A stretch of DNA of 64,000 nt from contig JAUYMS010000027.1 in assembly GCA_030698625.1 (NCBI GenBank), positions 103,781 to 167,780 on the forward strand. Direction: 5' to 3'. The notes under the pieces were generated by a model. That model did not search any database. It was not told where the DNA came from and saw nothing but the letters and a program-made list of their open reading frames with translations. Both the position numbers and the translations under genes were made by a program. Shown here in pieces: positions 3,537 through 57,063 of the stretch; within the stretch, counting starts at the first letter, position 1, and each line of letters begins with the position of its first letter. The DNA is from Candidatus Omnitrophota bacterium. GTDB taxonomy: Bacteria > Omnitrophota > Omnitrophia > Omnitrophales > Aquincolibacteriaceae.

Positions 3537-4211
3537 TCAGCTTTTTTTTGGTTCTTGCTGATTTCGGACGTGCTCTTCGAGGCTATCTATTTCCTTCTGT
3601 AGAAAGCGGATGCGGTTCTTCAAGGCCTTCACAGGGTCGGGCAAATCGCCGTGATCGAGGTTTACCTTGGACACTCGACTGCCCTCTTTACGGACAATTA
3701 CGGCCGGTACCCCTACCACGGTGCAGTTATCAGGGACAGAATGAACCACTACGGAGCCTGCCCCAATCTTCACATTGTTTCCAATTTTAATGTTACCAAG
3801 GACTTTTGCACCCGCGCCGACAACCACGTTAGAACCGAGGGTCGGATGCCTCTTACCGCGCGCCGTACCCGTGCCGCCGAGTGTAACACCTTGATACAAC
3901 GTGATGTTTTCACCGGCCTCCGTCGTTTCACCGATGACCACCCCCATACCATGATCAATGAAGAAACCCGGCCCTATGCTGGCCCCGGGATGAATCTCAA
4001 CCCCGGTAAAGAACCGTACCAGCTGGGACATTAGCCGTGGGATAAAGGGGATCCTCAGGCGGTGGAGGAAGTGGTTGATCCGATACCAGAAGACGGCATG
4101 GAACCCGGAATACAGGAGAATGACCTCAAGCACGCCCAGCGGGGTTTGAGCAGCCGGATCGCGTTCAAAGTAAGCCTTAAAGTCTCTATATATGGTATAG
4201 AAGGGATTCAT
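3537..4211 (-). CDS. cysE: serine O-acetyltransferase
   Basis: Short-form CysE: N-terminal [40 protein letters not shown], then hexapeptide-repeat left-handed beta-helix ([26 protein letters not shown]... [26 protein letters not shown]). The track ORF extends to 4412 as an Arg-rich out-of-frame overlap with the giant gene, so I use the ATG at 4209-4211 (224 aa). Confidence 0.8.
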
Positions 4212-4260
4212 GGATTCATTATTTCCTTTAATGGGTGCTTTGTCAATGGAAGGGGCTCTT

Positions 4261-7200
4261 TTACGCCATCGTCGAGATGAGTTTGGAGAGTTCGAATTCG
4301 TAGGCAATTTCCAGGGCCAAGTGGGTAATTTCCAGCGACTGCCTCGTAACCCGGACCGTTCCCTGCATTTGCGCCACCAGTTCCTCAAGGAGTTCAGCTT
4401 TAAGACGCTCATGCCTGTCTTTCAGGGCGAGCAGTGAGGTCATAAAAAGCGCGATAGGCATGCCCGACTCCACGCTCACCTGCGAGAGTAACAAGCGATT
4501 GCTATATTGACCCGATAGCTGCTCCTCAGCAACACCCAAAACCATGGCTAGCCCATGATCCCGCAAATAACTTTCCAGTAAAAACTGAGCTGGCTCAGAA
4601 TCGGCTTCAATGATCTTGGCCACACCGGAGGCCTCCAGCGCCTTGGCAAAGGCTACCCAACGTTTGCGCTCATCGGCGGTAAGCAGAACGCGAATATCGC
4701 CAGTCACTTGTAAGGGATGCGCCGCTCTAAGATCGCGAACCATCTCGACATATTGGCGCAATTCACTACGCGCCTTGACGGAATCCGGCATGCGTACGGC
4801 AAACGCGAAATTGAGTTTGTTCTGCGCGTCAGCTGCAAGATGCGACCTCAGCGCTTCTACGATACGTGATATACCAGCATCAATGAAGCTTCGATGTTCT
4901 CCGTCATAATCAGCATGATCCTGGCGAATCTGCCTTTCGGCGCGAAGCAGGGAAACGATTCCGCCGTCGGAACGGGCAAGCAACCAGAGATTCACGTATC
5001 GCGGCTCGCCCATCGCGGCATAAGCAGCCTTCTCAAAACTGTCTAAGCCGCCTGCAACCAAACCCGCGAGACGTCCTGCCAGATCCACTGGCAAGTCGGC
5101 ACGAGCCGCCAGAGCACCCAATACATCATGAGCCACCTCTCGCAGTTCGGAGCGATGGCGGTTGTCGCGCCCACCGCGACGCCGGCCGCGACCGAGGCGT
5201 TCTTCAATCTGTTTTTCTATTTCGCGGTCTTCGGTTATAAATTTTGCGAACTTTCCTACTGTATAACGAACCCACTCGAGGATCTCAGGGTTCCTTCGCG
5301 CTGAGCCAAAGGTCTCACGGTCCCAAATCCAAATCTCATAATCCTTCGGACGGCCCGTTTTGACATTGCGGCGTTTCCAGCCGTCGATCTTGCGCGCGAG
5401 GAAGCCCAACACCCCTGTTTTCTTCTCGTCGACCACCCATCTCTTCTCCTGACGTTTCCATACATTGGAACGGACCCAAGAATGAATCACCGCCTTATAT
5501 TCGTGACCGATGGAAGAATCGACGGTGGTAACGGTAAAGACGCCTTCGTCAAGCGCTTCGGTGGTTACGAATCTTTCACCGAGCTTCAGGTAGCGGCGCA
5601 AGTCCTGTGCCGCACGCACGTTGCGCCACTTGCGCAAGGACTGAATCTGTTCACCGACCCGGTCGCGCCACACATATTGGTAAAGCGCCTCTGAGCGCAG
5701 CGCGGTCTCGATCTGAGCAATCATGTCATCGTCGAGCTTCGCCTCTCCGTCGATGACCTGCTGTGTCCACTCATGGATCTTAGCCAATTCGTAAAGCGTT
5801 TCGGTGACGATCGCAATCTGGCGGCGGTACGGCGTCACCACTGCGATGTCTTTGGCCTCAAGCTTTTCGTAAAGGAATCGCCACTCGCCTTTATCGCCTT
5901 TCACATAGCGTTTCACTTTTCCGTTCATCAGCTCGTTGACCCAGTGGACCACACGGTTGGCCTCGACAAAATTACCGCCGGTAAACTCCCTACGATCACC
6001 GCGCGGAGCCGCTTTCGTCTCTTCCGGAGCACGGCCGTTGGTGTTATCTTCGATCACCACCCCCGGATCGTCACGTCCCGGAACGAGCTTGCCGTTATAG
6101 AAGTAGTTATTCACATCCACGATCCTATAGCCGGATCTGCGCTGAATATCGAAGAAGTGGAAGCTCGGTCTCGTAAGCTTGAAGATCTCGTCTTGAGGAT
6201 CACCCTCAAAATAGATCTCCAGTGCCCGCTCCAGGAGCGAGATGCGGAAATTGTCGACACGCTTTTGCGCGAAGACTCCTTCGCGGACATTCCGCCGCAA
6301 CGTAACCCGGCCGAAGTCGGCCTTGATCTCTTTAAAATCGGGCCCCAGTTCGCGCAGCGCCTTGTCGATATCGCCCTCGTTGTCGCCATCACTGATCCCA
6401 TAAGCCGGAAGCTGATTGTGGTCACCCACGAGCACCACCATTTCCAGATTGGGCAGATTATCCATCAATTGCAGGGCCTCGGCGAGTGTGGCGCGACTCC
6501 CTTCGTCGATAATCAGGATGCGCACCTCGTCGAGCAAAATCGGGTGGCTCAAAAGATCATGATCCTGTAGAGCGCCGTTAACTGTTCCGACTAGGACAAA
6601 CCCCTTGCCGCCCTTCTTGTCGGGAGGCGTCGCCGCCGCGGTCCGCTGGCGGTCCTTACTCGCCTGCACCGTGGCGCTCAGCTCTTTGAGCTTTTCGGCC
6701 TTCTTTTCCCAGTTGGCGCGAATTTCCGGATTCTCGATCGCCTGGTCACTGTTACCGATGCGCACGAAGGCAACCTCTTTGGGCAAACGTTCGATGGCAT
6801 TGTCCAAAGCTTGATTCTGCTGCGCTGCCACCAGCACATTTTGATTGCTATCGTAGAGCATCTTTACAAGCAGTGAGATGACATGGGTCTTTCCCGTTCC
6901 GCCCGGTCCTTGCACATAAACCACGGGGATTTCAGTATTGAGGAGTTCCACCACGGCCTCGCGCTGCGGCGGATCCAGCTCGTGATCCATCTCTTTTTCA
7001 AGAAGTTCGAGCCAGGCGCGGTTACGATCATTCTGCCGTCTCTTTTCTTCTGCGCCGGCAGCGCTCGGGATGTCGACACGAATTCCCAGGGCCCGGTCCA
7101 CGACCGTCTTTCCAGTCGTCGCAAGCGGGCCCGCATTTCCATCAATCTCAATGACGGACCGGGATGATTCAATAAGTTTCCGAATCATCCCGCGCAGCGT

Positions 7201-10200
7201 TTTGGCCTGCCGCTCCCAACCGTCATTGCGCATACGCGTCATAATGCCGGCACGGCCCATCCGCTCAAGCTTATTGACAAGCTCGTCGCGGCCCTCATGC
7301 GTCTTCGGAAGCTCAAAGACAACTTTTTTCGGCTCTACCGTCTTGACCCGGAACATGAGCGGCAGTTCTTCATCGTCGGTCGGATGACGGAAAGTGAAAC
7401 TATCGCCCGGGAGAATCACTTCTTTTAAATTAGCGGCCACAAGCTGATCCACCAGAAAACCGGTTACCGTAAACGTTGTGCGGTCTACGGTGAGGCGGTC
7501 AAACGGGAATTCGAATTCTACAGGGAGGTCTTTCGCACGGCGGCGCCGATGCTCATTGTCGTCGCGAAGCCTCTGAGCTTCGGCCATCGTTCTCACAATA
7601 AAATAGTCATCGATCATTTTCGGCAGCCACAAGCTTGCTACGGCCTGCGAAATAATCTCCTGCGCTTTCTTGAGGACGGCCTGCGACGGCCCGTTGTGGA
7701 CCGACAGTTCAATGACAAGCCGAGCCATCTGAATCGCTTCCTCGACAAGCACCTCATGCTGGCGCTCCTGCCGTTCATCGGCAGAACCAAGGTCGACAAG
7801 AATCCTCTGCTGACTCTGATTCAGCTGGAAAGCGTTTTCATCAGGTAAATTCGAAACAGCCTCGACGGCCCCATCAAAGGCTGCCTTGGCCTTCGTGAGC
7901 AGGAGGTTGAAGGTCCCTTCGCTTTCTTCCGGATAGGAGACCAGATGCACCGCAGCGCGGTAGGTTTCGCGAAGGTCGCCGTTGACTTCGATGACGGCAC
8001 GCAGTCTTCGGGCATTGCGTTCATGCTCGGCAATTTCGTCTGCCAGGTCTTTGATTTCGTCCTGAGCACGGGCCACACTTACGGCCCACGCATCTTCGAG
8101 GTCGCCGATTGCTTTGTCATACAGCCTGCGCGCGGCACGGAAGCGCTTAGTGCTGAGATTCCCTTTCACCTGACTCATGAGGTGTTGATAGGTCTTAATG
8201 CTGGTAATAGCGGCGCTCACTTTCTTGTCTTCACCGAATTTCAGATTTTTCTCCAGAACCTCAATCGAGCCTGTAATGGATTCGCGTTTGCCGGACGCGA
8301 TACGAATCGCGGTTCCCCGGATGAGATTGCTATAGAACTTATATCTCTGGGCATTAGGATCCCCGGGATTTAGTTCTTCGAGCTCTTTGGCCAGCTGGGC
8401 GATAGTCTCGTACTCATTCGGTGAGAGGGAGTCCCCGTATCCCTTGCGGATGCGTTGGAAGAGGTCTGCGGCTTGCGCGATTTTTGCTTTGAGCGCATTC
8501 AGCCGACCGCGTACTTCATCAAATTCTTTCGCCTTCGCTCCCTCGATACCGGCCCTCACGGAATTTTCGGCCCCTTTATAATCACCGGCGACGAGCAAGC
8601 GTTTTGCATCCTCGAGAAAATCCACCGGCCGCACCTTGCTCTGCAATGTCGGCAAAATTTCTTTCTGGATGCGCCGGCTAGCCTGGCCGCTTAAGCCCCG
8701 TTCAATCCTCTGCGCCAAGTTATAAACGGTGGCTGCGTGTTCCCGGTCGATGTTGTCTGCCAGCCACTTAAGCAAGATGTAGCTGGCATCGCCCTTCCAC
8801 TCTCCTTCGTTCTTCAGAAAATCTTCGAAATAGGCCGTAAGCCGTTGGCGGGTTAGCTCCGGGGCCATGAGTTCCAAGCGATATAGGATTTCTTTCAACT
8901 GTGCGCCGGTAAGCCTCTCGAACCCGGGGCCGGTCAAAAGATCCAAGTGACTTTCGATCAGGAGATTCTGAAAATCTTCGGGAATCGTCAGAAAGACTCG
9001 GGCAATATTTTTATTCGTAAGAAAGTTATTTGCCTTCGCCTGCTTCTTTTTCCCTTTCGTTTCCTGCGGCAGTGTCTTTTTCAGTTCCGCGCGGCCTTCA
9101 TCGAAGCTGCCTTGTGACCAATACACTATCGTAAAGGCCGCCTCGACAGAAAAATTGGAATCGATCTCGAGCTCGGAAAAGCGTTCGCGCGCGCGTGTTA
9201 AGGTCTTGAGCGCCTCTGCCGGGTTACCGGCGCTTAAGGCTGCGACGGCGCGGTGGAATTCGGCATTCGCATGCATCGCCGCCTTCCGCTTCTCATCCCC
9301 TTCATGTCCGGCGGCTGTCTGATAGATACCGAGCAACTCCTGCGCTTTCGCTCGGGCACGCTCCGGCAGATCCCCCTCGCCTTCGGCAAAGCTCGCTAAA
9401 ATTTCCATAAGCCCGGCGCCCCGCAGGACAACCATATCGCTTACTCCTTCGTAATCAAAATCAAGCATCTCGGTCGTTGCCTTTAGAAACGTCTCATCAT
9501 CCCTGACGGCCCAGGCAATTGTGGCTATGGACAACAGAAAGAATTTATTGCTCTGATAAAATTCGTCGCCCATGGCAAGCCTCAAGAACTTCGAGATTGT
9601 CCCTCTTAAGCCTGCCAGCTCCGAATCCCCCAGGTGAAGCGTATGCAGCCAGCTCCCGCTATTGAAGGCCTCAAACATCATTTCGTAGAGCTCGGCATTA
9701 GCCGCATGCCCTTCTTCGCGATGGCGCTCGAGGTACGCGAGGCCCCGGCCGAAGCGCTGGCCCCACAACTGAATCTCACTTTTCGCGTCCTCAATCTTTC
9801 CGTCACGCAGTTTTCCGTACACAGTCCGGTTCAAATGCTGCAAGGATGATGCCGCCAATACGTCCCCTTGATCCTGACCCATCCGGGGCATATGCGTCGC
9901 CACCGCTCTGAGGATCTTCTTATTGACCTCCAACTCGATGTCTTCTTCGTCGGCAATTGCCGCGAGTTCGGCCAAATTTTGGTAGAAGAAGAATATCAAC
10001 AGGCTCTCTTCGTGTTCGGAGAGCAACTGACGATACTGTTTGATGCCGCCTCTGAGGAAGCTCGTGAGGTTCCTCCGGAATGTTTGATAACGCTCACCCC
10101 CTTCGCCTTTTAGATATCTGCTCTCGTTGATAAGGAGTTTCAAGAAACGCGTATAAAAGGCAATGTCTAGAATGGCATTGATGCCTGTCCGTTGGCTAAA

Positions 10201-13200
10201 ACGTTCCCGGATGCGTTCAAAGAGGCCAAACATGGCCCCCGGATCGTAACCATGCTTCATAAGATGCGCATCGGCAAGGTCGGCAAACTTTTCAACATAC
10301 CGCGTCTTTTGATCGTCGGCAACATGACCGCTATTTGTTCCCCGGCCTGCGATCATGAAATAATTCAGAAAGCCGTCAATATCATCGGCCGTCTTATCGA
10401 TACTGGCTGTCAAGTAGTCCGCGGTTTGCTCCGCAAAAACGGCATCGCGCCCCTTGTTATCAAGGGTCAAGCGTTCAACCAGTTTGCGGGCTAAGATCGG
10501 ACTCCGAACGTTTAGGGCATTGAGTACGGCATGTATGTTTTCCCAATGGTTTGAAGGCCGCTGTCCCACTCTGTATAATCCTTCGACAATCGCAAGCGTG
10601 GCGCTCGTGATATAGCCGCCGGTTCTGATTTCACGTTCCAGAAGATACGTAACCATTTCCTCCATAGCCCCGGCATCGTCCGGCCATTGCTTGAAATCAT
10701 CGAAGATCTCACGGGAAAGTCTTGCGGCAGCTCCGAGCTGATGCATCGGTCGGCTTAGAAAAACGCTTTTGCGCGCGCCGGGAAGAACCTGCAATGTCCT
10801 TGCTTGGTAGAGCAATTTAAAGAAGAGCTTGAGGGCCTCCTTCGCTTCGTCGGGACGGCCCCTTAGAAGATGTACGGTCGCGTGGTCATACGGCAGAACC
10901 AGCCTCATTTCGCCCAATGCTTTCGGAGCCAGATCGCGATATATCCGGTCGGCCGTTTCAAGGTCCCCCGAGTAAAAAGCGGCGACAGCTTCGAAGTAAT
11001 CGTGCCAAGGCTCGAAGTATGCGTCCGCGTAGGCGCCCGTCGCCTTGCGGGCCTCGATCATTTTATGACCCGCCGCCACTGCCTGACGAAACGCCGCCTG
11101 CGCGCCTTCCATGTCCGGTTCCGTATCATCGGCCGGCGGATTGTTCAGAATAAACCCGCGCAGGAAGAGCAAGTGCGTCAGAAAGGATTGGGAAATGGCA
11201 TGGTTCGGATCCAGATCCAGCGCGAGACGGATAGATTCAAGCGCCTGATCAATGTGTGTGATGTCTTCCTTATAGAGCATATGAAAACCGGCAAGCTCGG
11301 AGAGCACATCCACCCTCATGCTCTGCACCTGGTCTTCGGGAATCCCCTCTTTGCCGACCTCATCTAAGAGCATTAAGGCCTTTTCCAGGGCAAGGAAGGC
11401 CATGGCGATTTCAGTCGGCTTGAGCGGGTCGAAGTTTAAGCGCAACTGCTCGGCCAACCGGGCGGCCATCTCGATCTGTTCCCAATTCGTCATATCTGTT
11501 TTCGACTGCACATAAACTTCCAGGAGCATACGCTCGGAATCGAGCATGTCTGCCGCAACCAGCAGATTGCTCAGGCGCCGGTAATTCCCGTAATCCAAGT
11601 CGCTGGAGTAGTGATAATCCACAACGGTTGGCAGGATCTGCTCTATGGTCTCACGGGGCGGCATGCCATCCCCATAAGAATTCATAAGAACAAAGGCCGC
11701 TGACTGACGCATAACAACCATCAGATCCATACCGGTTTTGAGATGTCTCAATTCTTGCGTGATCTGGTCTTCGCGATCTTGCAGCTTTCTTTCCTTTCTT
11801 ACGGATCCCGTCTTCGTCCTCGCGGTAACTTCATACTCCTCCTGCAGACGGATCATTTTGCGTGCCGCCGCCCCTCTTGCCTTATCAGTCTTATTCAGAA
11901 GGATATGGGCAAGCTCGATCGGATCCCCCTGCGCAGTCTTGAGACGTTCCACCTCGGCATCACTCTCACCCAAGATCTCTTCGACAACCACGCCGGCACG
12001 CATGAAATCTGTTTCCGCCCGCTCGCCGTGCTGTTCGCCAAGCTCTGTGCGCAATTCCGACCGCGCAGCGGGTTCAATCTCCAGAATCTGAAAATGCCAG
12101 CCGTCGATAACCGGAATACCGATGCCCCAGCCTTCGCGGTGCAGGGCCTCGCCCTTAAGGGTATCCGGTTCCGTCAAATATTTCTTCTGCAGATGATCAT
12201 AGACGCGGTAACGGGCATCTCCCCTCTCGATTCCGAGGAATCCCACATCGGTGAGGCGCACCCAGACTTTCTTATCGGGTTCGGTATGGTGCCGCGATCC
12301 GAATGAAATGGGTACAATCAGGCGGCGGCCTTCGTGGGTTCGCGCAAACACAATGACGGTCTCACGGCTGACTCGATGAAATTCAATTTCACCGTGGTCA
12401 AAAAGATCGCGGAGCGCCGTATCGCTGATAACATCATTTAGGCGGGCAAAGACTTCCTGATTCCAGTCTTTCATATAACGCAGCAGGTCGGGCGAGGCGA
12501 TGGCAATAAGGGCCATGACGGGCGGTATCCCAACCGGTCGCTTATCTTGATCGCTAAAGTGCTCCCGGGCTGCATTCGGTTTTAGCTCCGCCACGGTTTT
12601 CAGAACATTCTTGAGTTCCTCTGGTTTTTCCCGCAGGGTCTTGATTTCATTGATCAGCAACAGAGCCGGCGCCTGGTTGCCTCTGACAAATTCCCCGCGA
12701 ATCGCCGCACTTAGATAACGAATTAGTTTTTCTTCTTTGCGCTCGACAAAGCGCAATGCCTGAACCGTACGAACGTTCACCGGCAACCCCTGGGCAAAAA
12801 GATCCCCCACCGTATGCCGTCCATATTTGGCTTTCGTGTTCGCGTTCTCAACGTCAAAAACAGACGCCCTATCCCCAACGGCGTCCTCACCGAGCAGGGT
12901 GGTAAAACCGCGCACACCGTAAACCTCGGTCCCGCCGAGCGCCTCTTCGGTGGACTCATTGACCGCGACGAGAACCTTCTCGCCGTTAACGTGAACGGTA
13001 TAGGCCTTTACGTTCAACGTTGTCGCGTCGAGGAGCTCTCCATTTTTATGGAGGTACCGAATGAGATACTCCCGCAAACGAGCATCTTGGAAAAGCGTCG
13101 ATATTTCCTTGCCCTCCTTGATGGAACTCTCGAGTATGCTCCAAGAGAGGCGGATGGCAAGCAGGTTTATCACCTCAAAGGCATGCAGGTTTAATTCGAC

Positions 13201-16200
13201 TTTTTTGTTAAGCGACTTCTCAGATGCCGATGCGGTAGCCAGGCGTTTGATCTCATCTTTTACGTCCTTGAGACTCGGGTCATCGTCTTTGAGAAGATAA
13301 TTCAGGATGAAGTGGAAAATGTCACCTTCAGGGTGTAATTCGGGATTACTGGTATGATAGCTCATCGCCCACAGCGCCTCGACGCCGCGCATACGCAGTC
13401 GGCGAAAGCTGTCGAGAAAGCCCAGCAGGCCCGGGACGCCTTTTTCTACGAGAATCGTATCTTTCTTAGCGAGATCGGGACGGCGCGTCCAGCCAAAACC
13501 GTCGTCCTTGGCGAGGGTTAGAAGATTCGTCGCGGTAGTGCTCGGAATTTTCAGATTCGAGAAAATTTTATTCTGCTCATTGCGCCGGCTTATGGCTTCC
13601 TGCCAGAGAAAGGCGTGGGCCCGCGTCTGTCCGCGTTCGATATCGACTTTCCAGGATGATGCCACGGCCTGATACTGTGCTTCGCGCCGGCTAACAGGAT
13701 CGCTGTAGCGTGTCTTTAGGCCCTTGAGTGCGGCACCCAGGCTCGCGGCCATGGGCCGCCGTCCGCCGCCATCGACCCCGCTCATTTCAGAATTCGAATA
13801 TTCCACCAGGAACCCATTAGTGATTTCCCACACCCCGCTCTCCAGGTTCTGAACGAGTTCATCATGTGAAACATTTTCGGCGAAGATATCGATCTCACGG
13901 CCTGATGACTTCTCGATAATCGTAAAGAGTTCCGGCATGGCACCGCCCCAGACACCGATCAGTTGAGCGAAATTCGCCAAACCTTTCATCATGCTCGTGG
14001 CCGATGCCTCGAGAAACTCATCGGAGAGCATCACCACACCGGCCATGGCCTGAAAAATAACCGGCGCGGCGAATATACTGTAATTCTCCACCGTCGCAAT
14101 ACGGTGCTCGAGACCCAATTCCCGAATTAACTCTTTGATGCGATCGAATTTCCACTGGGCTCCGGAATCAAAGACGCGCCCGCCGATGACGACCCGAGCC
14201 GAGTCACGTTTAAATGCCGCAAGCGCTTCGGGGTCCCGCGCGAGCGATTCCAGGAGCTCGATCCACTTTTCCGGCCCCTTATACGCCACTTGGCGGCGAA
14301 TGTTCGAGACGATCGGGTCTTCAATAAGGATATCCCTGAGAACACCCACGTCTCCTGATAAATTCGCCCATTTCGTTTCGTCTAGAAGGGCGGCGTGAAT
14401 CGCTCCCATGAATGACTGAATCAGCATCGCTCCGTCTTCCGCTTTGTGCCCGGTGCGTTTCGTATATTCAGCGATGGCGTCCTCAAACCATAACGAATTT
14501 CCCTGCTCCACGGCCATCCACAGCAGAAATTGTCCGACATAACCCGCATTGACGTATTCGCTTCGCCTCTGAAATTCATCGCGAAGCGCTGCAGATGTGT
14601 TTAAAATCTTAAAAAATTCGCGGTCGCCGTCACTATCCACCATGCCAAGGCTCGTTTTGAATTGCTCAATTAGTTCACGCTTTTCGGGCGATTGCCACTG
14701 GTCGAGGAGCACGCCGTTGGTGCTGCGGACACCGTTGCTGTTGTACCCGGTCAGCTTGTGCATATGTCCTGAAAAGATTCCGTCATTTCGAAGCACGGGT
14801 GTGTGCTCATAGAGGCCGACACCGGTGATCATATCGGAGTACATGGCGACCGCATCGGTGATGTTGATCTTGTCGCCGTTCACGATATACGGTCTCATCC
14901 ATTCAGCAAACCCCAACATCTCATAGGAAGAGGCATTAGGACTATAGAGACCGGGGCGAAAAACGGTATGGTTAATATGGTGATGCATGGCGTTGGGGAA
15001 CATCGGAGTCGGCATGCTGGCGAACACCTCGTTATCCACAAAGAGGATATCCTGTTGGACAAGCTTTCGGCTCTGCAATTCCTTAAGCAGCATCTGGCTC
15101 GCCTGCGCATAGGCTCCCATGTGAACATCCCGCCACAGAGTCGTACCCGTCTCGTCAGCATCAGGATAGACCTCATCGAAAACACTGACCGTCCGCCCGT
15201 CCCCATTCACAAAAAAGATGTCAAGATAATAGCTGGGAGTTTTCCCGTACTTGGTTTGCGTCTCGTAGACATGAACCGTCAGTTCGCGGTCGACGACACT
15301 TCGCGCCTTCCCGCGGGCCTTATCTCGAAAGTCATCACCGATTTTCAGTTTCATCTTAAATTCGATGCCCGTATCATCCAGGACTTCCTTCAGGTAATCT
15401 CCGAGATTCTTCGCGCCCGCGAGCACTTCGAGCGGCAAAGCACCGTTTAGGCCCTCCGATCCCCGCTCCCCTCGGACAATTCCCTTGATCTTATTATTGT
15501 AAAGAGGGTGAATGGCAATGATGTCGGTACCGTTCTTGCGCCAGCCGTCGATCAGATCCGGCATAAGGGCCCCCAAACCGCCGGTGAAGTTGAGCTGTGA
15601 GACGAAATTTGCGATCTTTTTGCCGAAGCGGTTAGCAAGTTTTGCCAAAATATCACGGTGCAGGCCCGCTTCGAACTGCCGCGTAACCACGGTTACATTC
15701 TGAACATCTGGCGTGTTCTCGCTAACCCATGTGTGCCGCAGCTCAGACCGGTGTGTTTCCGCCGGAGTCTCCTCAGAGCCGACAACTTGATCAAGATGAT
15801 TGAGAGCAAAATCAATAGTCGGCAAATACCATACCGGTTCGCCTCTCCCGTTTAACGCATTGAGTGCCGCTTGAAAGGAATATCGCGCGAATACGATTGC
15901 CTGCTTTTCGGCTTGCGATCTGGCCTTAAACCGCAACTTGGGTCTAAACTCAACGAAGGCCTCCATCCCTACTTTACGTGCCGCCCAAGCAATACCCCTT
16001 TCCAGCCAACCGCCTGAAGCTCCACGCATGGGCGTAACAATCGCCCATATCGCTTGGTAATGCTCTTTGAGAACTTTGGTGCCGGCGGGAACCTGCATAT
16101 GACTATCGGCAATGAATGCTCTGAAGGTTTTCGTGACGCCCATCTCCCGCATGATTTCCTTAACCGAGCGCAAATCAAAAGTGCCCGTCATAAGCAAAAC

Positions 16201-19200
16201 GCCCCACAGCTGCTTACGCAAGAAGTCACGCAGCTCATGATCACGCGTCGTGATGATGTGGCGGCCGGCATAATCGAGGATTTCAATTTTCCCCTTTTTC
16301 AGACGATACTTCCAGCCGTCGAGGACTAATGTGGGATTGACGGCTTCAATGTATCGTTCGATCAGCTCCGAAGTAACTTGCGGCGCCTTAACACCTGCGG
16401 CGAGATCACGATTTTTCGGCAAATCAAGAATAGAGGTGGCGCGGCTAAGCGTGTCGAAAGTTGCATATCGGCGAAGAAAGCTTTGTGCTTTGCCTAAGTC
16501 GATCTCTGCGAAGGAGAGAGATACCTTGATCTCTACGGCTTCGTCTACTCGATTCAACTGCTCCGGTCTTGCTTGCGTCTGCGCAAATGGCTTGAAGAGT
16601 TCTTCCTCAGGCTCCAAAGCGACAAAAATATAAGCACGCTTAAAAGTGCCGGCGGGAAGCGCTTCCCCGGCGGCCGACACGGCACTTATTCTCCGGGAGA
16701 CCGCGCCCGGCAAATCCTGACGGATCAGCTGAAAGCGATCCTTGGTCATGGGTTCAAGGCCCATCCCCAACGTCTCTCTTTGTTGCCGAAGAGTCTCTGA
16801 AGGCGCACCGCCTCTGAATCCAACCAACGCATGCGGCAGAAACTCATTGGCCGCGAGTTCTGCCGGGGTCGCTGTCCAAATACCCACTTCATCCAAATTG
16901 TCTTGTTCGCTAAGGATTTCGTCTTCTGCTACGGCCATGACTTCTTGGATCGTGCCTTCACCAAAAGTAACCATCTGGGCCAGGTTCAGTTTTTCACGGG
17001 CGGCCTTCTGCTCTTCCTCCCGCCTGGAAGCGAGTGCCTCATTTCTGCGCGCGTCATCAGCCTTCCGTTCTTGCTCTGCGACATACTCCGCAATCGCGCT
17101 CATTTGGACGCCGAGCAGATCTTCCCGGCCCCGGATTCGCCTCTGCCGCTCTTGGATTTCCTTAAGAACGCTGACGCGTTCGGCTTCGCTGAAATGCCGT
17201 TCGTCGACCCAGGCCGAGCCGTCGGGGGCGATTTCATGGATCTCGACAATCAATGCCCGCAGTTCGTCATCGGAAATTCCGTAGGGCTGGTTAATCAGGA
17301 CCAAGTGCCCGTCCTCGATGGCGCTTACCAGAGACGCGACTTTATCGCTGTCCGTCCAGGCGCTCGGATCCTCGGTCATATCTCTAACATTCTGACGAAT
17401 ATTCTGAACGGTTTTCCCCGAACGGAATTTCAAATGAATCTCACTCACTCGGGCATTCGTGCTGTAGGATTCCGGTTGCGCCAAGATCACAACCATGACC
17501 GTTCCACCGTTGCGCAGCTCGACATCTTTGACTTTGTCTTCTAGAAAGTAGTCCGCTATTTGCCCTACCAGGTCTTCTTCCGGCTGAACGCGCTCGAATC
17601 CCAGACTTTGGAGTGCACTACCCTGTTCCTCGGTCGCGGGAATCACGCGCAGCGTAAAGCTTCCTTCAGCCGGTGCTTCCATTTCCTTCAATTGATTGAT
17701 CACGTCCTTATCACCGGCCATCACGCGCTCCGTGATCTCCGGGGTCTGTGACTTCAACTTCGCTGCTGTCTCATTCGGAACGAGGATGACGGGGCGCACT
17801 TCGGAGCTGTCATAGGCGCTGCGTCCCAATTCATAGTGCGCCGCGGAGTTCAATTCCGAGAACTGGTTTATAAGAAGGGGGTACGCATCGATGTTAGACT
17901 CCGGGGTCACTCCAGAGTAGACGCCCGGGTCCTTACCCTCGCTGTCATTACCGCGCGTCAGGAAAAAGCCCGCGTTTCTATCGAGAAGGCTCAGCACCTG
18001 CTGAAAGTGAAACGAATCCCCAATGCTCGTCTCGTTGATCAAGACTTGGTAGCCCTGCTTGATTTCTTCGGGGTAATCCCGGTCAGCATCAAAACCAAAG
18101 TAAGCAATAACCGTCCTCTCGATACCGTTATGCCGGAAAGTCGCGACGTATCTCTGCTGCTTGCGCTCCTGTCTCCTTCTCGCAAATTCAATTTCAGTTT
18201 CAGGATCGACCACAGATCCGAGCTGCTCTGTAACCTGCGCCTTGAAGTCACCAAAACTCAGAGGTTCCCGGTGCGTACCGATAAGGGTTTCAAAATCCGT
18301 CTTCATCAGGGTCCCGAGGATATCTAATTTCCCGGCTTCATCCCCGGCGCCGAGCCCCATGGAGTAAACAACCGGTTTATCAACGAGTGAGGTAATCAGC
18401 CGGGCCGTGTTTCGTGCCAAGGTCAGCTTCTTGCGCGCCACCTTTTCGCCCTGCCCGAACCCGTCGAAGAATTTCAGGACATGTTCTCTTGATGCCTTGA
18501 TGCCTGTGACAGGGAGTTCCAGATCCAGATCGATATCGCTACCCGGCAGTTCACTGCCGAGATCCCGGAACGGAATGTAGTGCGCGGCGCTTTCTTTCGC
18601 GCGGTTATAGGACTCTGCCGCTCTAAGCTCTGAACGCTTTAGATCCGTTTTTTCCAGAACGAGATATCGAAGGCTCCCGTCCGCTTTGCGCAGCGGATCG
18701 CCGCTTGCATCCTTTGGCACGAAGAGGAAACGCAGTACTTTTACATTGGTCACCTCGTCCAGCTTGGCCATTCCCGTCGTAAGGTCTGTCAGATCTTCGT
18801 CGGCAAGATAAACTAATAAGTCATTTTGCTTTGCGCCTACCGTGCGGAAGACCTCGGCAAATACCGCGGCGCGGCGGGCATCGCCGTATCCGGTTATTGC
18901 TTGGTTTATCGTAATTAGCGGCCGGTATCTTACAAAGCTCAGGTCGCCCTGGATCTCCAACCCCGACGGCACTGAAATCGGCTTTGAGAGGATGTCCTCC
19001 AAGGTTCGGCCTTCGTCCAACTGGTCAAACACGGCAATAAAATAATTCAGCATATTCCTTTCCTTCCGCACAATCTCGGCAAGGGTATCGCGATACAATC
19101 TGCGGTCATCCTTGTTGCCGATGACCCGCGCCAAGACCTCTTCGAGGTCTTCGAGCACGTCAGGGCTATACTCGTGATAATGCGGGTTCTGGATTTCGAG

Positions 19201-22200
19201 AAACCGCCCGAGCGAATTTCTAAAGATTGCCCCCATGCTATCCACATAATTCGGGGAGCGCTCGAGCTGCTGGAGGAATTGCTCGGCGAGCGTATCGTGG
19301 GAGAACAGATGCGTCGAAAACAAAGTACCGCCGCCGACGCCGCGCGCGGCAAAAGTAAAGGCATTGTTCAGGCCGAAATCTCCCGCCACGATTGCCGCAT
19401 CACTTAAAAAATGCAGGCGGTTAAATGTGCGGCTCTGTTGGCTCGCGATATTGATCACGATGACCGAGCCCGGCTTGATCTCGCCCGGGATCTTGACGTG
19501 CTTGTCGTGGAGGTCGATGAACGTCACTTCAGGCTTAAGGTCGTCGCCGTTTTCGAGAACATCAAAGATTTGATCGTGAAGCTTATGCTGCTGGCCGTGG
19601 ATGTCCTTATATTCTTGGCCCCTATTCAGCATCGTGAAGACGACAATCGGTTTTCCGTCCGCCATCGGGTATTTGTGTTCCCGCGCCTTGTGCAGGCTGT
19701 TGACGAAGCGGACAAAGGAGCGCCTATTGGCGTATTTGCTTGTATAGACAAAACCCATGAGACTTTCGGGAATGACATCATTGCGCAGATGTTCCAGGAG
19801 CTCGAGGTGAGGCGTAAAGCTGTTTTTCTCTTCCGTCGGATATACGGTAAACAGCTCATCAAAAAGCGCCTTACGGTGAGCCTTCATCACCATCGGGTCT
19901 CTCCATGCCTCTTTTCCGGTTCTCACGATATCCAGAATTTCTGGGTCCGCATAAATATAAGGAAGCACTTTGAGCTTTTCCTTTTTCGGATCATGCATGC
20001 CCGGCACGACTCCTTGAAACACGGCGACGCGATCACGGATCGGATCCAGCTGCGAGGTGTCGGAGCTCGGGATATTGACATAAGGGGCCACGAGAAACTG
20101 TGTGGGCCGTTCGGCCGGCGCAATTTCGGCCAGCAGTTTGTCGGCACGCAGCAGCGATTCCGGTCCGCGCGGACTGAGTTTGGAATCATAACTAAAAGAG
20201 ACAAAGCCGCGGCCGTCTTTAAGATCGACATCCTCCACGGCCCGATACCCCTGATCGAGCAAAAACTGCAGGCGCTCGTCTTCAATCTCATCAACGCTCG
20301 GTTCGGTACGCAGCTCCGAGCGCTTGGCACCGCCTTCCCGCACGAGCTTCTCCACCAAGTGAGGCTTTTGGCGGAAGAGGTGCAGAATGGTATTCGAAAA
20401 CTGGTCCGGATCTTGGTAAACGCGTCTTTGAAAGGTTTTCAGAGGCATCCGTTCCAGATCACTCATTTCATAGATATTGTATCCCTGCCGAATTGTCGCG
20501 ATCTCCGCAGAGTTACCCCGATAAACAAATAGCGTTCCGAACTCATTGTTGACCGTGTATCCCTGCCGGTAAGAGCGCTTCATCTCGTTGTCTGCAGAGA
20601 TTTGCGTGAGTCTGTGCAGGTCCATCTCAATGCCCAACTTTGCGCGGGTTTCCCGGACAACCGCATCAATGAGCGTCTCACCGACTCGGACTTGTCCTCC
20701 TGCGGTGATCTGTAATTTTCCCGGCGAGAGGATCCGGCTGAGGCTCCTGCGCGGCAGAAGGACGCGGCCGTCGTCATCGACAAACAACACCTGCGCGGCC
20801 TGATGCCAGTCCCCGTCCCGATAAACCCGGTACTTCGCCTTCCCTTGGCCGGCAAGAACTTGCCCTCTCTCGTCGACGATCTGCACGATATCTTGCTCAT
20901 CATTCAATCGCCGCCATGCCCCGCCGCGAATGGACTCAATATCTCCGCTCTCTCCTGCGGGCTTAGGCCGCATCACTAATTTATCCTGAAAACTCACACG
21001 ATATTGACTGGCGTGGATTCCGAGAAGTCCAATAACCGACTGTGCGAGTAATTCCGGCGAATAAAAACCCCACTCGCGATCCACTTCCTTGTAGCTTGTC
21101 CCGGAGCGTTCCAACGGCTTTCTGATTTCCAGATCGAGACCGATGGTTCCGACCTGGCTGCGGATGCTGCGGTCGACTTCGGACTGATCGAACGGTATGT
21201 AGAGTTTCCCGGGATCCCTCTTTTGGTAAGTGGTGGGGCTGCCGACGGTATAGTGAACAACGCCTCTGACATCCGGAAAATTATGCGTCGGGTGACTATG
21301 CACAAACTGCCTCGTCGCATACCGGTAGATGCGCTTGACCAGTCCCAGGGCCGTGGTTCCGTAAGGTTCGGCTTCGCTCGTGGGGTTGGCAATGTGAATC
21401 TTTACGGCCTTTTCATTGCTGCGAATGGCCTCTCCGAGCCCGGGGACAATTAGAGAGCTTCCGATATTGGATTCCAGGGTGGTGTTGCCGTAGACGATGG
21501 CGTCGGCATTCCGCAGAACCTCGGCGACATTCTCGCTCACCGGATCCTCGCTGATATCGTCACCAAGAATCTCGGAAATAAGGCCGGCGGTTTCAAACGC
21601 CTGTTTTTCGTCTACCTTGCGCGATGTTTCTAGAATCTCACGGGCCAGTCCTTCGTCATAATCTTCTCCTCCTGCCTCCGGAGATCCGAGCCATACCCCT
21701 CTGCGCTGCAGAGTCAGGGGCTCGATATCGATCCCGCGCTCGCGAATCTTACGTTCAAACTCGGCAATCTCAACCGGGCGGTCCACCAGCCACAGCCCGA
21801 TAAACGGGTGCGTCTTGTCTCGGAATTCATTAACGCCGGTCTCGGCAAAGTAGATCGTCCCGTCCCCGGCCATGGCAACGAGATGTTGCCGCTTCTCGGT
21901 CGGGAAGAGCACCCGGTCTCCTTGCTTCATATCCAGAACCGCACCGACGGCATCGACAGCCTTTTGCCAGAAATTCTCCTCACCCGTATCTTCGAGCTCC
22001 CAGGCAGCGCCAAGCAGCGCCAAGCTCCTGAGCGGCATAAATTCGTAAGTGAATTCACTCTCGGCATACCGGGTATTCAATGTATCGCGAAACTTCTTGA
22101 GATAGCCGGTGAGTTCCCCTCGTTTTGCGCCGGCTATAGCCAGCCCCTTTTCTGAAAGCTCGCGCATCGACTCATAGTGAAACTCGACACCACTCTCTCC

Positions 22201-25200
22201 CTCCAATACGAGAATCAAGCGCTCGAAGTCCTCGGCAAGCAGCGTCGCATCCGCGCCCTCAAGACGTTTCTTAAGAAAGTCTATGACGGCTTCATTATTC
22301 CCGAGATCCAGCAGCGACTTTCCTGCATCCGGGATACCGGTGGCACCGAAATCGCGGGCGGGAATAAACCAACTGCGGCCGTCATCGACCGCGCCAAGCA
22401 GAATCTGCACATTGACGTTCGGGAGTGACTTCAAAACCTCCGTGAACTGGCTGGCCCCGCGGCCGCCGCGGAGAACCACGATGTTTAGGGGATCGGCAGG
22501 ACTGTGCTGCCGGAGGAAGGCCTCATAATCAAATACGGCATTAAAAATGGTCTCGACCTGCTTGGCATCAAGTCCGAGCGGCGGCGGGTTGCCGCGCAGC
22601 AGATCGAGTCTCGCTTGAAGCAATCGCTTAACTTCGTCCGGGTTCTTCAAAACAGCGTTGTCCTTAATTGTTTGATACAGAAAATCGGGACTTTCGGTCA
22701 GCCCACTCAACGCGGCGTCTCCGACTCGCGCGGTCACCCCCTCGCCTGCGAGCTCCTGAACCAGGCTTGCAATATCTCTGAGCGTTTGCGCCTGCTGCTC
22801 CAGAATCCCCGGCGGGGCATAGAGCTTCGTATAGATCGCGGTTTCCTCACTGGCTCCCAGTCGATCAATTCTCATGACCGGGTCCTCAGACCGAAAGGCA
22901 TTGCGCTCATGCAGGCGAAATTGACCGCCGGTTGAAATGATAATGCCGCCCGGCTTCAAGTAAGACATGAGGTTCTGTGCAATGACACGCGCCTGCCGGT
23001 CTGAAATAGATTTGGGATGAGCCACATCAGAAATAAAGATGATATCCATTTTTTCATCTTCGTTTTGTAATTCCGGTAACGGTTTCTTAAGATCCCAGAG
23101 ATAGCCGTTCACATTGGCTGTGATACCCTTGGTCTTCAGGTTCTGATCCATGGTGCGGAAGTTCTTTGGAAGCGCGTCAACAAGATGAAAATCGCCCACG
23201 GGATACTCGGAAAATTCTTCGACCTCCGCACCGAAGATTCCTGGGCCTGCGATCATGACGCGCGCACCCTCGAGATCGGTCTTGAATGATAAATTCGGGC
23301 CAACGCCTTGATGCGCACGCGCATAGTCCATAAAAGCCGAGAAGTCCCGGTTAATGAAGGTCCATCCCAACCCGTCGGAAGTGGCCGAAATGCCGTCACG
23401 CTCATCGTCGGCGGTGTCTTCGGGCTGAAGATCTAGAAGCGCTTGATCGACCTTCCGCATGCGAATCACCTCTAAATCTGAAAACGGCGCGTCTTCCGTT
23501 TGTATTTCAGAGCGCCGGGCTAGCGGGATAAAGTGTTCCCGGTAAACGGCGTCGGCAGCCTGACGGACGCTCTCGCGGAACTGATTAAAGTCTCTTAGTT
23601 GATCATTGATATACTTCGCCCACTCCAGCTTGTCGGCGGTGGCCGTTCCCATAAGTTTTTCACTCAGCAACAATGCCATTTCGCGGCCGATGACGATATC
23701 CGCACTTTCTCCCGGCACTTCCCCATCTGTTCCCAGAGCCTTGGCAATTTTCAACAAAAGCATAAAGGGCGCATTGTGCTGCTTCCGCAGGGCATTCAGC
23801 GAGGCCTCAACCTCAAGGATCATCTCGTTAGCAATCGCTTGCTTTTCTTCGGTTTTCGTGGCCGAGTCTGCGAGCCGCGTTCTGAGAGTCGAATCATCCT
23901 GCAGCAGCCGGCTTACCTGCTCTCTGCCGAAATCGGGTTTTCCGGCCACAAAGACACTTCCTGTGACGTCGCGCATAAAACGCTTCGCGTCAACATGACT
24001 TCTTTCCTCGAGCATCATGTCCTCGAGCAATACTTTCTTCAAATCCTTCTGATCGCCCTCTCCAAAAGATTCAACCCGCACTCGCATCGTGACATAGTCC
24101 AGTTTGTCCGGTTGTTGACTGAAGGGAAGCATGCGGAATCCCGGACGCCCGGAGTCTCGCTTCATCTTCTGATAGTGGGCGATTATCTCCGCCAGGAACT
24201 CCACTCCGTCTTCGTACAAAGTAATGAAGTCTTCGGTTGCCGATGCGACAACCACTTGATCGACCTTGGTTTTCAGCCTCACAAGGTAAACCGGGACCTC
24301 ATGGCCGGCCTCAGTTGTTACTTGGCGCGTTTCTGCGTCGTTGAAGCGGAGAATGCGGTAAGGTTCCTCGGTGGTGCCCGCTTGTGCAACGATTAGCCCA
24401 TGCGGAAAAAACGTCCTCTGAAAATGCGGGGCAATGTTTGCGGCTTCGACAGCGCCCATCGTGCTGTCCGGACTGATGTCGCTGATATCCGAGAATTTTA
24501 GACCCGGTTCCAAGACACCCAGCGTCTCATCAAACCACGTTATGAATTCCCCTGCCGGCAACTCGCCTGTCTTGAGTCTTTCAGCAAGTGGATCCTGGGT
24601 CGGGAGAAAGACTTCGGAAATCCATTTTTCGATATCGAACTGCACGTGAGAAGGGTCCAGAAGCCGGGCTTCTTTAGCGCCCTGAAGGTATTCGGTGATC
24701 GGGGCAATATGCTGCCGTGAAAGACGCGCCAACCTAAAGACATCTGCGACAGCCCCCTGATTAATATCGCCCGCTCCGTCCAAGAGGGCGATGGCTCTAC
24801 CGCGCTGCGCCTCGTTAACGCGTTTGTTAATCTTTCTGCCCAACCCCGCGATGAGCCCATCCAGAGCTTCTCGTTCTGTTCTCAGCTCCGAGCGGGCACC
24901 TGTGTCCGGCGCCGGGCGCATGAGATCGATTGCGCTAAAAGACGGCTTCGGGGGAAAAACCACTCCGGGGTTGAAGCTCAGCCTGTGCTGACCCATGAAT
25001 CTCTGGAGCCTGTCCGACATCTCTTGACGACCCTCCTGCGCAGCGGGATCCACCTGTCCGTAAAGCGCAAAGATCAACTCGTCCAAGAAATCTTTGGTGG
25101 CTTGATCCGGTGTGAGCACCACGCCTAAGTACTCGCGTTCTATAAACCGGAGGCCCGCCTCGTCTCTCATCTCAATCCCATAGACACTGCGGACGATGCG

Positions 25201-55950: not shown

Positions 55951-57063
55951 TTAATTGAGCTGCATCGGCATGACAACATACAGATAACCATCTTTACCTT
56001 TCAGTAAACCCGGCCTGTCTGCGTCTGTCAGCGAGAAGGAAACCTTTTCAACATCAAGATTCTTCAATACGTCGATTAAATAATTCGGATTGAACCCTAT
56101 AGCGATCTCAGGCCCGTTAAGACTGGCCGGTAATTCCTCTTTCGCTTCCCCCAAATTAGGCGATCTCGATGAAATTAGAATTTTACCTTGGACAAAATCC
56201 ATCTTTACTGCCGGCGACTCAGCGGATGTCAAAAGTGCCGTGCGTTTGACCGCCTGTAAGAAATCTTCGCGGTTGGCTTCTGAAAGGGTTTTTTCTTCTT
56301 TTGGAATCACTTGCTCATAGTTGGGGAAGTTGCCTTCGATGAGCCGGGAAAATAAATAGGTATCGCCGACCTTAAAAATGACCTGATTGTTCGAAGGAAT
56401 AACAGCCAAGTCTCCTTCCCAACCAAGGATTTTCGATAACTCCTGCACGGCCTTGCTCGGAACAATCATATCGAAATCGCGCTTTGTCTTATTTTGGAAA
56501 TCTTTTTCAATGTAGGCCAGCCTGCGGCCGTCAGTTGCAATAAAACGAATCTTATTTTTAATAATCGATACTAAAATCCCATTGAGAACATACCGGGTTT
56601 CATCATTAGATATCGCAAAAGAGGTTAATGTCAGGCTCTCTTTAAAAATGGCTTGCTCCATCTCAAATGCCGCTTCCGGATTCACTTCGGGAAGTTTCGG
56701 GTAGTCTTCTTTCGACAGCCCCATAATCTTAAAGAAAGCCTTTCCTGATTTAATACTTACGGCATTATTTTTAGCAACTGAAACCTCGACGGTTCCTTGC
56801 GGTAACTCCCGCACGATTTCATGAAGCTTTCGGGCGGGAACCGTGATACTGCCGGACTTTTTAACACTCGCTTCAATCTGGGTAGAAATTCCAACTTCAA
56901 GATCGGTGCCTATAACCCTAAGAATGTCTCCGTCTTCAGCTTCTAAAAGAAGGTTTCCTAATATGGGAAGCGTATTTGTTTTTGAAGAGGCCACACTTCC
57001 GGCTAGGCCGATGGCTTTGAGAAATTCCGCCTTCTTAACTTGTATTTCCATGAGTCCTTCCAC
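55951..57063 (-). CDS. dnaN: DNA polymerase III beta sliding clamp
   Basis: 370 aa with three-domain clamp colinearity (…LKAIGLAGSVASSKTNTLPILGNLLLEA…). The true start may be MEIQV (57051). Confidence 0.9.
   Translation of the reverse strand: MEGLMEIQVKKAEFLKAIGLAGSVASSKTNTLPILGNLLLEAEDGDILRVIGTDLEVGISTQIEASVKKSGSITVPARKLHEIVRELPQGTVEVSVAKNNAVSIKSGKAFFKIMGLSKEDYPKLPEVNPEAAFEMEQAIFKESLTLTSFAISNDETRYVLNGILVSIIKNKIRFIATDGRRLAYIEKDFQNKTKRDFDMIVPSKAVQELSKILGWEGDLAVIPSNNQVIFKVGDTYLFSRLIEGNFPNYEQVIPKEEKTLSEANREDFLQAVKRTALLTSAESPAVKMDFVQGKILISSRSPNLGEAKEELPASLNGPEIAIGFNPNYLIDVLKNLDVEKVSFSLTDADRPGLLKGKDGYLYVVMPMQLN

Follow-up and report, generated by a model that had tools for sequence, protein, structure and literature searches.

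We describe here a segment of a giant protein encoded by the 64,000-nucleotide stretch of DNA that we analysed (the window: positions 103,781 to 167,780 of contig JAUYMS010000027.1, assembly GCA_030698625.1, from a Candidatus Omnitrophota bacterium). The segment forms a single unit between delimiters in a membrane-associated multi-enzyme giant, and we lean towards reading it as a unit for nucleoside-diphosphate-linked (NDP-X) compounds or nucleotide sugars, in which a YvcK-like core, a methyltransferase (MTase) and a non-hydrolytic Nudix domain would be set between two processing sites. It comprises 1,524 amino acids (aa 4580-6103), ranks second in length among the 17 fragments bounded by the pentapeptide RSELR, and contains, in order, an uncharacterised domain of ~390 aa, an MTase-like cassette, a YvcK/CofD-like module and a Nudix domain. 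What is new here is the YvcK-like subfamily and the delimiter motifs; multi-enzyme giants were already known in Omnitrophota. The features concerned are, in window coordinates:

4261..38631, minus strand: giant open reading frame (ORF) of 11,456 aa, from a Candidatus Omnitrophota metagenome-assembled genome (MAG)
24880..24894, minus strand: RSELR delimiter at the start of the segment, aa 4580-4584
23527..24684, minus strand: uncharacterised conserved domain of ~390 aa, aa ~4650-5035
23500..23514, minus strand: decayed delimiter RSEIQ, aa 5040-5044, aligned exactly with the RSELR ahead of this cassette in the related proteins P0016 and P0017
22807..23499, minus strand: MTase-like Rossmann cassette, aa 5045-5275
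20950..22803, minus strand: YvcK/CofD-like module, aa 5277-5894, consisting of a helical leader (~100 aa) and an enlarged CofD/YvcK core
20392..20901, minus strand: domain with a Nudix fold, YfcD/DR0079/IDI-1 type, aa ~5911-6080
20629..20700, minus strand: degenerate Nudix box, aa 5978-6001, with Gx5Ex7RE retained
20308..20322, minus strand: RSELR delimiter at the end of the segment, aa 6104-6108

A first-pass annotation of the sequence had placed three domains, resembling S-adenosylmethionine (SAM)-dependent MTases, CofD/YvcK and Nudix proteins, in series between two RSELR sites. Both sites are exact, the six peptides it quoted all occur in one frame of one ORF (aa 5125, 5225, 5383, 5711, 5744 and 5978), and the three domains do lie inside a single RSELR-bounded unit of the ~4.6 kb it gave. 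The interval it assigned to them, 20550-23340, covers the right region and is too narrow at both ends, since the MTase-like cassette begins as far out as 23499 and the Nudix domain runs to ~20392. Its list of domains overlooked the fourth, conserved one at aa ~4650-5035, and it missed the apparent fusion of cassettes which have delimiters of their own in relatives. Profile searches place the CofD and Nudix assignments well above noise and the MTase assignment below every Pfam threshold. The same annotation considered the coupling of these modules on a giant envelope protein unexpected. We disagree, since an MTase and a Nudix domain on one giant are to be expected from the multi-enzyme giants already described in this phylum. 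Omnitrophota giants carry glycosyltransferases, methyltransferases, NUDIX and other domains (West-Roberts et al. 2023, bioRxiv 10.1101/2023.11.21.568195), a 'multi-enzyme metabolic cluster' class is recognised among proteins of at least 10,000 aa, of which 5,761 are counted in Omnitrophota (2026 preprint 10.64898/2026.06.07.730766), and proteins of that size that tile methyltransferase and NUDIX domains, along with GNAT, HAD and REC domains, are thus a described class. A CofD/YvcK-like module is mentioned in neither paper. Nor is 'envelope protein' supported for the segment itself, which has no hydrophobic stretch and whose recognisable domains need cytoplasmic cofactors. By counting the six credible transmembrane segments upstream, we infer that it lies on the same side as the N-terminus, presumably the cytoplasm.

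The YvcK/CofD-like module and its partners

The module matches the CofD family of Pfam (PF01933) with an expectation (E) value of 1.6e-12 and 47.7 bits (47.7-48.5 across scans), against a gathering score of 30. Its AlphaFold2 model, built from a ten-sequence alignment, has a predicted local distance difference test (pLDDT) score of 87.4 and a predicted template modelling (pTM) score of 0.89. When the model was compared with the PDB by Foldseek, the top match was YvcK from B. halodurans (2hzb, E 1.6e-12, template modelling (TM)-score on target 0.86), followed by 2ppv, 2o2z and 2q7x, so that YvcK/UPF0052 structures span TM-scores on target of 0.72-0.86. The FbiA/CofD structures rank behind YvcK with TM-scores of ~0.5, and nothing else is significant. 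Profile and fold thus agree with the earlier placement of the module in the CofD/YvcK family. At the level of subfamilies the match is lost: the module scores 22.4 bits with the YvcK model TIGR01826 of NCBIfam (cut-off 196) and 20.3 with the NCBIfam 'GAK system CofD-like' model (cut-off 340). As it falls so far below these cut-offs, it is an orthologue of neither YvcK nor CofD, and we conclude that it is a new, larger subfamily of the CofD/YvcK superfamily, ~615 aa in length and structurally nearest to YvcK/GlmR. A search of 5.8 billion protein clusters returned nine homologues in total, seven of which have a precomputed PF01933 match, and the 15 genome loci and 6 metagenome loci at which it occurs are almost confined to Omnitrophota. 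Identity to the window's copy is only about 30-47%.

The module shares with YvcK/GlmR the order of its motifs: the N-terminal glycine loop, DDG(G/R)S, xPxG(D/K), (D/E)G..(G/A)E and AD.I..G(P/x)..L.(S/T)(S/N). Ten family members share G121, R122, D148 and G149 without exception, and D147 almost without. When aligned to YvcK from B. halodurans, DDGRS of the module falls on DDGGS, with the Asp-Asp pair (D5416 and D5417 of the giant) retained, and HIANP (within the module's HIANPT motif) falls on YICNV, with the equivalent of Asn217 retained; the Asp pair corresponds to D40 and D41 of Listeria GlmR. The D40A/D41A/N198A triple mutant of that enzyme has a ~100-fold lower uridylyltransferase activity (PMC10128056), and in YvcK T13, N217, Y264 and R300 make contacts to the dinucleotide or UDP-sugar (PMC5482804). 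As the module retains both the Asp-Asp pair that GlmR needs to act as a uridylyltransferase and the Asn through which YvcK contacts the dinucleotide, we suggest that it is the likely catalytic or ligand-sensing core of the unit. It differs from YvcK in size (~615 aa compared to ~320 aa), with two large insertions, the helical leader of 100 aa and a C-terminal extension of ~130 aa, and in setting, since it sits in giant or multidomain proteins whereas YvcK/GlmR is found in the yvcJ-glmR-yvcL operon. The likeness to the CofD/FbiA 2-phospho-L-lactate transferases (3c3e, 6uw1), which carry out chemistry on NDP-activated donors, extends to the Pfam family and the superfamily; the structural match is much weaker (TM-score ~0.5). 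We also considered a CofD orthologue acting in F420 synthesis and rejected it: the fold is nearer to YvcK, there is no match to a CofD equivalog in NCBIfam, and no F420-pathway genes were seen among the window genes scanned.

The domains that accompany the module in its relatives point in the same direction. P0003 (1,648 aa) has the CofD-like module followed by Methyltransf_11, an AUDH sugar cupin and a NUDIX domain, the last homologous to the Nudix domain of the segment, and in P0006 the module directly follows a genuine MTase, which matches a solved RNA MTase at E 6e-8. A Cof-type HAD phosphatase lies downstream of the module at three loci (L006, L009 and L014), the HAD motif FDLDGTLY follows it directly at L017, and a cupin of the mannose-6-phosphate-isomerase type lies upstream of it at L013, which is from Omnitrophus magneticus. 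Altogether an MTase adjoins the module in three proteins, of a different type each time, and a Nudix domain does so in two. It is from the HAD and cupin partners that we draw the suggestion of nucleotide-sugar or sugar-phosphate chemistry. A branch of the superfamily with recurring methyltransferase, Nudix, HAD-phosphatase and sugar-cupin partners gives a biochemical handle on proteins that are otherwise nearly opaque. We note that on contig Ga0082335_1000043 (L018 and L019) at least four adjacent ORFs, P0003 among them, carry the module near the N-terminus. What are segments of giants elsewhere are therefore ordinary genes on this contig, which is an unfused counterpart of the delimiter-bounded segments.

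MTase-like, Nudix and uncharacterised domains

In the MTase-like cassette the glycine loop reads GPGIFGAE, strand 2 is followed by an acidic residue (in LVDALP), and the motifs DIIFISDV and LKPGGIIIS are present. Its best Pfam match is Methyltransf_31 (E 1.6e-5; 25.1 bits where the cut-off is 27). It has eight sub-threshold Pfam matches, every one to a family of methyltransferase type, and its best matches among PDB sequences are phosphoethanolamine N-methyltransferases (E 0.02-0.2). A word-index homology search with aa 4580-5290 found no relatives; an exhaustive HMMER scan with the same residues found 21, and showed the ~230-aa cassette to be common to P0016, P0017, P0027, P0033 and P0034. 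The family has in common the GPGxxGxE loop, D(I/L)(I/V)F and LKPGG, with the acidic residue after strand 2 present in five of six members. The best Pfam E values of its members range from 7e-6 to 5e-5: four of the six match both Methyltransf_12 and Methyltransf_25 (best E ~4e-5) and one matches Methyltransf_23 (7e-6), all sub-threshold, and there are a few Pyr_redox matches also. An hhalign comparison with the clear MTase of P0003 gives a probability of 88% over motifs IV-V only, and a profile of the family finds only generic Rossmann loops (MccB, E1 enzymes) among PDB sequences, at E ~0.02. The single-sequence AlphaFold model (pLDDT 42) is unusable; its Foldseek matches, mostly MTases, at a TM-score of ~0.3, with dehydrogenases among them, are suggestive at most. 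We conclude that aa 5045-5275 is a real, conserved Rossmann cassette, which makes the MTase-like domain of the first-pass annotation plausible, if sub-threshold as an MTase assignment. The cassette most likely has a class-I methyltransferase fold, and use of SAM is putative.

The Nudix domain matches PF00293 with E 1.6e-9 and 38.3 bits (38.3-38.9 across scans; gathering score 21.1), which bears out its assignment to the family. The nearest solved proteins by sequence are YfcD (2fkb, 1.6e-7), DR0079 (1q27, 4.6e-7) and type-1 isopentenyl diphosphate (IPP) isomerase (3hyq, 3.7e-6), with which it shares an N-terminal extension and the conserved Gx5Ex7RE. The box reads G-x5-E-x7-R-E-T-R-A-K-L-G-I. 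The complete Nudix box, Gx5Ex7REUxEExGU, is thus absent from the domain: RETRAK replaces the REx2EE of the YfcD/DR0079/IDI-1 proteins, and the alignment to YfcD puts Ala-Lys in place of the final two Glu residues, just as the earlier description of the box as degenerate had it. As two metal-binding Glu residues are missing, the domain would more likely bind an NDP-X ligand than hydrolyse it, a reasonable suggestion already made in the first-pass annotation. The sole homologous Nudix domain found elsewhere, that of P0003, retains RELKEE. The domain falls far below the NCBIfam equivalogs for IDI (48.6 against a cut-off of 127) and YfcD (41.3 against 152). Type-1 IPP isomerase, although the best NCBIfam match, was rejected for a further reason: the NSVCGHP motif of IDI, which supplies the catalytic Cys and a metal-binding His, corresponds to QITAGGQ in the segment, so both residues are absent.

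The domain at aa ~4650-5035 is recognised by the motifs G[RK/H]xVPV[YF], EExxH[SV]D and IEVE[AG]xL. It matches no Pfam family and has about 15 relatives, mostly within large proteins; a few are proteins of 335-354 aa. A second uncharacterised domain lies at the N-terminus of the giant (window ~36950-38450, minus strand, aa ~60-560) and is common to P0016, P0017, L006 and L013. Its invariant residues are D-A-H, Glu67, Glu119 and G-G-F-H, a pattern that suggests a metal-dependent hydrolase, and the domain could be a candidate processing enzyme. The order DAH...LEGA...GGFH resembles that of the Tiki/TraB/ChaN superfamily, as a lead only; Pfam, profile searches against PDB sequences and annotated homologues lend no support to an assignment of the domain.

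RSELR and other delimiter motifs

The giant has 16 exact copies of RSELR where 0.03 would be expected. The codons of the motif start, on the minus strand of the window, at:

36612, 35691, 35244, 34536, 33723, 32709, 31536, 29136, 26748, 24894, 20322, 18636, 15750, 12063, 5154 and 4770

The first Arg is encoded by CGC, CGG or CGT, Ser by TCG, TCT, TCC, TCA or AGT, Glu by GAG or GAA, Leu by CTG, TTG, CTC, TTA or CTT, and the last Arg by CGC, CGT, CGG, AGA or CGA. As synonymous codons vary in this way across the 16 sites, the motif is selected as a peptide, and we reject a repeat acting at the level of DNA, such as a cloning scar or an uptake or restriction site. Apart from a single antisense match within the gene of the giant, RSE[LMVAI]R is confined to the giant's frame among the six of the window, and the 7,451 aa of neighbouring proteins have no copy. 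None of the 16 RSELR sites falls within a detected domain, and three domains stand alone between consecutive sites: REC (fragment 981-1129), GNAT (1130-1365) and His-phosphatase (1637-1974). The sequence flanking the sites shows no difference in hydropathy. A literature search for 'RSELR' found only unrelated software names.

Relatives of the giant are punctuated in the same way. RSE[LM]R occurs 13 times in P0016, 9 times in P0017 and 11, 7 and 6 times in L009, L014 and L006, respectively. Across 64 delimiter sites the leading R, S and E and the final R never vary, and 53 have Leu or Met at position 4; small residues are favoured at -1 and +1, and the remainder is free. The boundaries too are homologous: the first delimiter behind the shared N-terminal domain is at aa 674, 665, 587 and 672 in four proteins, and the MTase-like cassette in P0016 and P0017 has RSELR on either side. 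A delimiter stands ~10 aa ahead of the CofD-like module in L009, L006, L002 and L005, and its sequence is not always the same. In L009 and L006 it is RSE[VA]R. In L002 (2-21733) and L005 (2-21769) it belongs to a different motif, [ST]N[SA]AV[L], with 11 and 18 copies, including one just before the module. In L017 (2-21739) a third motif, [SG]LDNG[GS], is present in 8 copies, and FDNGG and LDNGG flank the CofD-like module. Three lineages therefore place different motifs at equivalent module boundaries. An Asn followed by a small residue, as in the NSAV- and LDNG-type motifs, might permit Asn-mediated self-cleavage, which is speculative. Some delimiter sites precede stretches that resemble signal anchors or lipoprotein signals. 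Among the other parts of the giant, window 26749-31536 (minus strand, aa 2366-3961) encodes two tandem, paralogous RSELR-bounded segments, each of ~800 aa, both of which open with a signal-anchor-like stretch ~10 residues past the delimiter and close on a shared ending motif followed by RSELR. The segment that begins at aa 1366 likewise has a signal-anchor-like opening.

Within the segment itself no delimiter separates the MTase-like cassette from the YvcK-like module, or that module from the Nudix domain. RSEIQ stands in the giant where P0016 and P0017 have the RSELR ahead of their MTase-like cassette, and the delimiter found behind the cassette in these two relatives is absent from the giant. 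With a decayed site at an aligned position and none inside, the segment looks like four ancestral cassettes joined through the loss of delimiters.

It is quite possible, if we stop short of calling it probable, that the Omnitrophota multi-enzyme giants are genuine polyproteins of bacteria, with cleavage peptides that differ between lineages as their punctuation: RSE[LM]R in a lineage whose giants are cysteine-free, [ST]N[SA]AV[L] in a second and [SG]LDNG[GS] in a third. A short motif at the module boundaries is what characterises a polyprotein, and the giant has its 16 RSELR copies, with the motif at homologous boundaries in five relatives. Viral polyproteins and MARTX toxins resemble the giant in that functionally unrelated modules of shuffled content are carried on a long chain and separated by short conserved sites (PMC6315884, PMC2900308). 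They differ in that the giant has neither RTX repeats nor an identified protease and its modules are metabolic or regulatory. Unlike in MARTX, a cysteine protease domain is impossible, because the mature chain has no Cys. Proteolytic processing of Omnitrophota giants has been suspected, with the cleavage points stated to be unknown (10.1101/2023.11.21.568195), and neither cleavage nor a motif is mentioned in the 2026 preprint (10.64898/2026.06.07.730766). The delimiter motifs make cleavage of these giants a testable question, and they can be used to cut giants in silico into functional units for structure prediction and annotation. If the giants are polyproteins, gain and loss of sites would set which cassettes are released singly and which are kept fused, the segment would be a natural example of fusion, and the motifs would tell where, and possibly how, the giants get cut.

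Proposed function, rival readings and genomic setting

We suggest that the unit would handle a small molecule linked to a nucleoside diphosphate, with a nucleotide sugar or sugar phosphate as the most likely candidate, at the YvcK/CofD-like module. The methyltransferase may modify the same substrate or its product, and the Nudix domain would hold the NDP-X ligand. The RSELR pentapeptides would serve as processing or delimiting sites between modules. With RSEIQ decayed and the following site absent, cassettes that are separate in relatives would stay covalently joined, giving a product of ~170 kDa.

Several observations weigh against this proposal. In the module the glycine loop is RGGRG rather than the GGGTG of YvcK, so that Thr13 becomes Arg; the residue that we take as the equivalent of Listeria N198 is Ser (Ser or Ala in the family), with an invariant Ser-Asn four residues upstream; and equivalents of YvcK Y264 and R300 could not be mapped in the alignment. 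The MTase-like cassette reaches the gathering score of no Pfam methyltransferase family, its GxGxxG loop would fit NAD- or ATP-binding Rossmann folds equally well, and, as this cassette family adjoins a CofD-like module only in the window's protein, the fusion of the two could be neutral. Cleavage at RSELR is entirely inferred from the sequence. Residues flanking the sites are only slightly enriched in disorder-promoting types (0.70 compared to 0.66), and Pfam detects no peptidase family in the giant or its neighbours. The unannotated parts of the giant have no matches among PDB sequences; the two uncharacterised domains, with their conserved His, Asp and Glu residues, are the remaining protease candidates. 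Finally, a total lack of Cys is odd for a purely cytoplasmic assembly of enzymes. Of the giant's 11,456 aa only two are Cys (aa 20 and aa 24), and the N-terminal hydrophobic segment contains both; its 11,400 mature residues have none, compared to 0.87% Cys in the neighbouring proteins. Among the other bearers of RSExR, L014 has a single Cys, whereas P0016 and P0017 lack it, as do the L009 and L006 ORFs in the parts that were retrieved; giants with NSAV or LDNG delimiters do have Cys.

The lack of Cys is one reason to consider that the giant might instead be a MARTX-like platform for export and processing, from which the unit is released into or onto prey, where it diverts nucleotide sugars such as UDP-N-acetylglucosamine (UDP-GlcNAc) and so weakens the envelope. 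Proteins that are secreted unfolded typically lack Cys. The N-terminus of the giant, which resembles a signal, and its several hydrophobic anchors would suit such an effector, as would the setting apart of modules by short motifs, seen also in MARTX effector regions (PMC6315884, PMC2900308), the control of UDP-GlcNAc supply by YvcK/GlmR (PMC5482804, PMC10128056) and the predation and cell-wall attack proposed for Omnitrophota giants (10.1101/2023.11.21.568195). We nevertheless regard a prey-directed effector as unlikely. Pfam scans of the giant reveal no secretion-system signal, RTX repeats or translocation domain, its REC, SF1-helicase, TPR, GNAT and His-phosphatase domains are more housekeeping or regulatory than toxin-like, the delimited segments of the giants are ordinary tandem genes in another genome, and there is no evidence for a predatory habit of this organism. 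The three domains might, on the other hand, be pseudoenzymes that act as ligand sensors or spacers in an uncleaved, membrane-tethered chain, with RSELR a linker, docking or modification motif. The conservation of the module speaks against so passive a role: the Asp-Asp pair (D148 invariant, D147 nearly so) and many polar residues are kept despite identities of ~30-47%, as expected of a conserved active or ligand site. A non-catalytic scaffold would account for the degenerate Nudix box of the segment, not for the intact box of P0003, and it would fit the atypical glycine loops of both the MTase-like and YvcK-like domains, as well as the description of B. subtilis YvcK/GlmR as a UDP-GlcNAc-binding regulator. 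It would also fit our failure to find a protease (by Pfam and PDB sequence searches of the giant, and by Pfam in the neighbours), and the invariant Ser of R-S-E could then be a phosphorylation site. Three unrelated motifs at equivalent boundaries are, however, explained more easily by co-evolving pairs of protease and site than by a shared docking partner, and the signal-anchor-like or lipoprotein-signal-like stretches after some sites make sense as new N-termini. On these grounds we think a scaffold improbable, and we keep to a unit for nucleotide-sugar or related NDP-X chemistry between processing sites.

A trivial explanation would be that separate genes have been falsely joined by an error of assembly or sequencing, or by use of the wrong genetic code, so that the segment is several ordinary genes. 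The separate tandem genes on contig Ga0082335_1000043 and the units in relatives that open with Met and a signal peptide directly behind a delimiter speak for such an error. We give this explanation hardly any weight, as the 34,371-nt frame is uninterrupted by a stop under table 11, the delimiters are sense codons of varied synonymous usage with Met after none of the 16 RSELR sites, and numerous independent MAGs, as well as long-read genomes, encode related proteins of >7,000 aa. Against an artefact, too, an independent Logan assembly (SRR13727534) has the same ychF between rlmN and corA and, at the position of the giant, a gene of 1,421 residues that is ended by the end of the contig.

The giant has a signal-like N-terminus, about 6-7 hydrophobic segments and at least eight distinct domain types, among them REC, GNAT, His-phosphatase, CofD-like, Nudix, TPR and SF1-helicase. 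It is thus like the Omnitrophota giants of the 'Archaeovorin' type and of the multi-enzyme class in its phylum, its length of more than 10,000 aa, its many tiled enzyme Pfam domains and its transmembrane segments. It differs from them in its explicit, conserved delimiter motifs and in the absence of SecA-DEAD, C39 peptidase, S8 peptidase and dockerin domains (no Pfam match at E <0.01 over the whole giant), having a C-terminal SF1 helicase instead; SecA-DEAD and the C39 or S8 peptidases are reported to be common in such giants. This helicase is Upf1-like (AAA_11/AAA_12, E 1e-22; window ~5300-7000, minus strand, aa ~10550-11100); TPR repeats precede it, and RSELR follows directly at aa 11160.

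The window is chromosomal and adjoins the probable replication origin. Genes on the high-coordinate side of the giant include ychF, rlmN, corA, an ABC-2 transporter, serS, gyrA, gyrB, dnaN, dnaA, yidC and mnmG. Within 55951-63165 the minus strand carries dnaN and dnaA and the plus strand yidC and mnmG, and the minimum of the cumulative GC skew, at ~56-60 kb, falls in this dnaN/dnaA-yidC/mnmG region, which is the probable origin. Only ~19 kb separate dnaA from the start of the giant gene, and the two are oriented alike. At its 3' end the giant ORF is overlapped by ~150 nt, as listed, by an ORF for a hexapeptide-repeat transferase (3537-4412, minus strand), the true start of which is probably further downstream.

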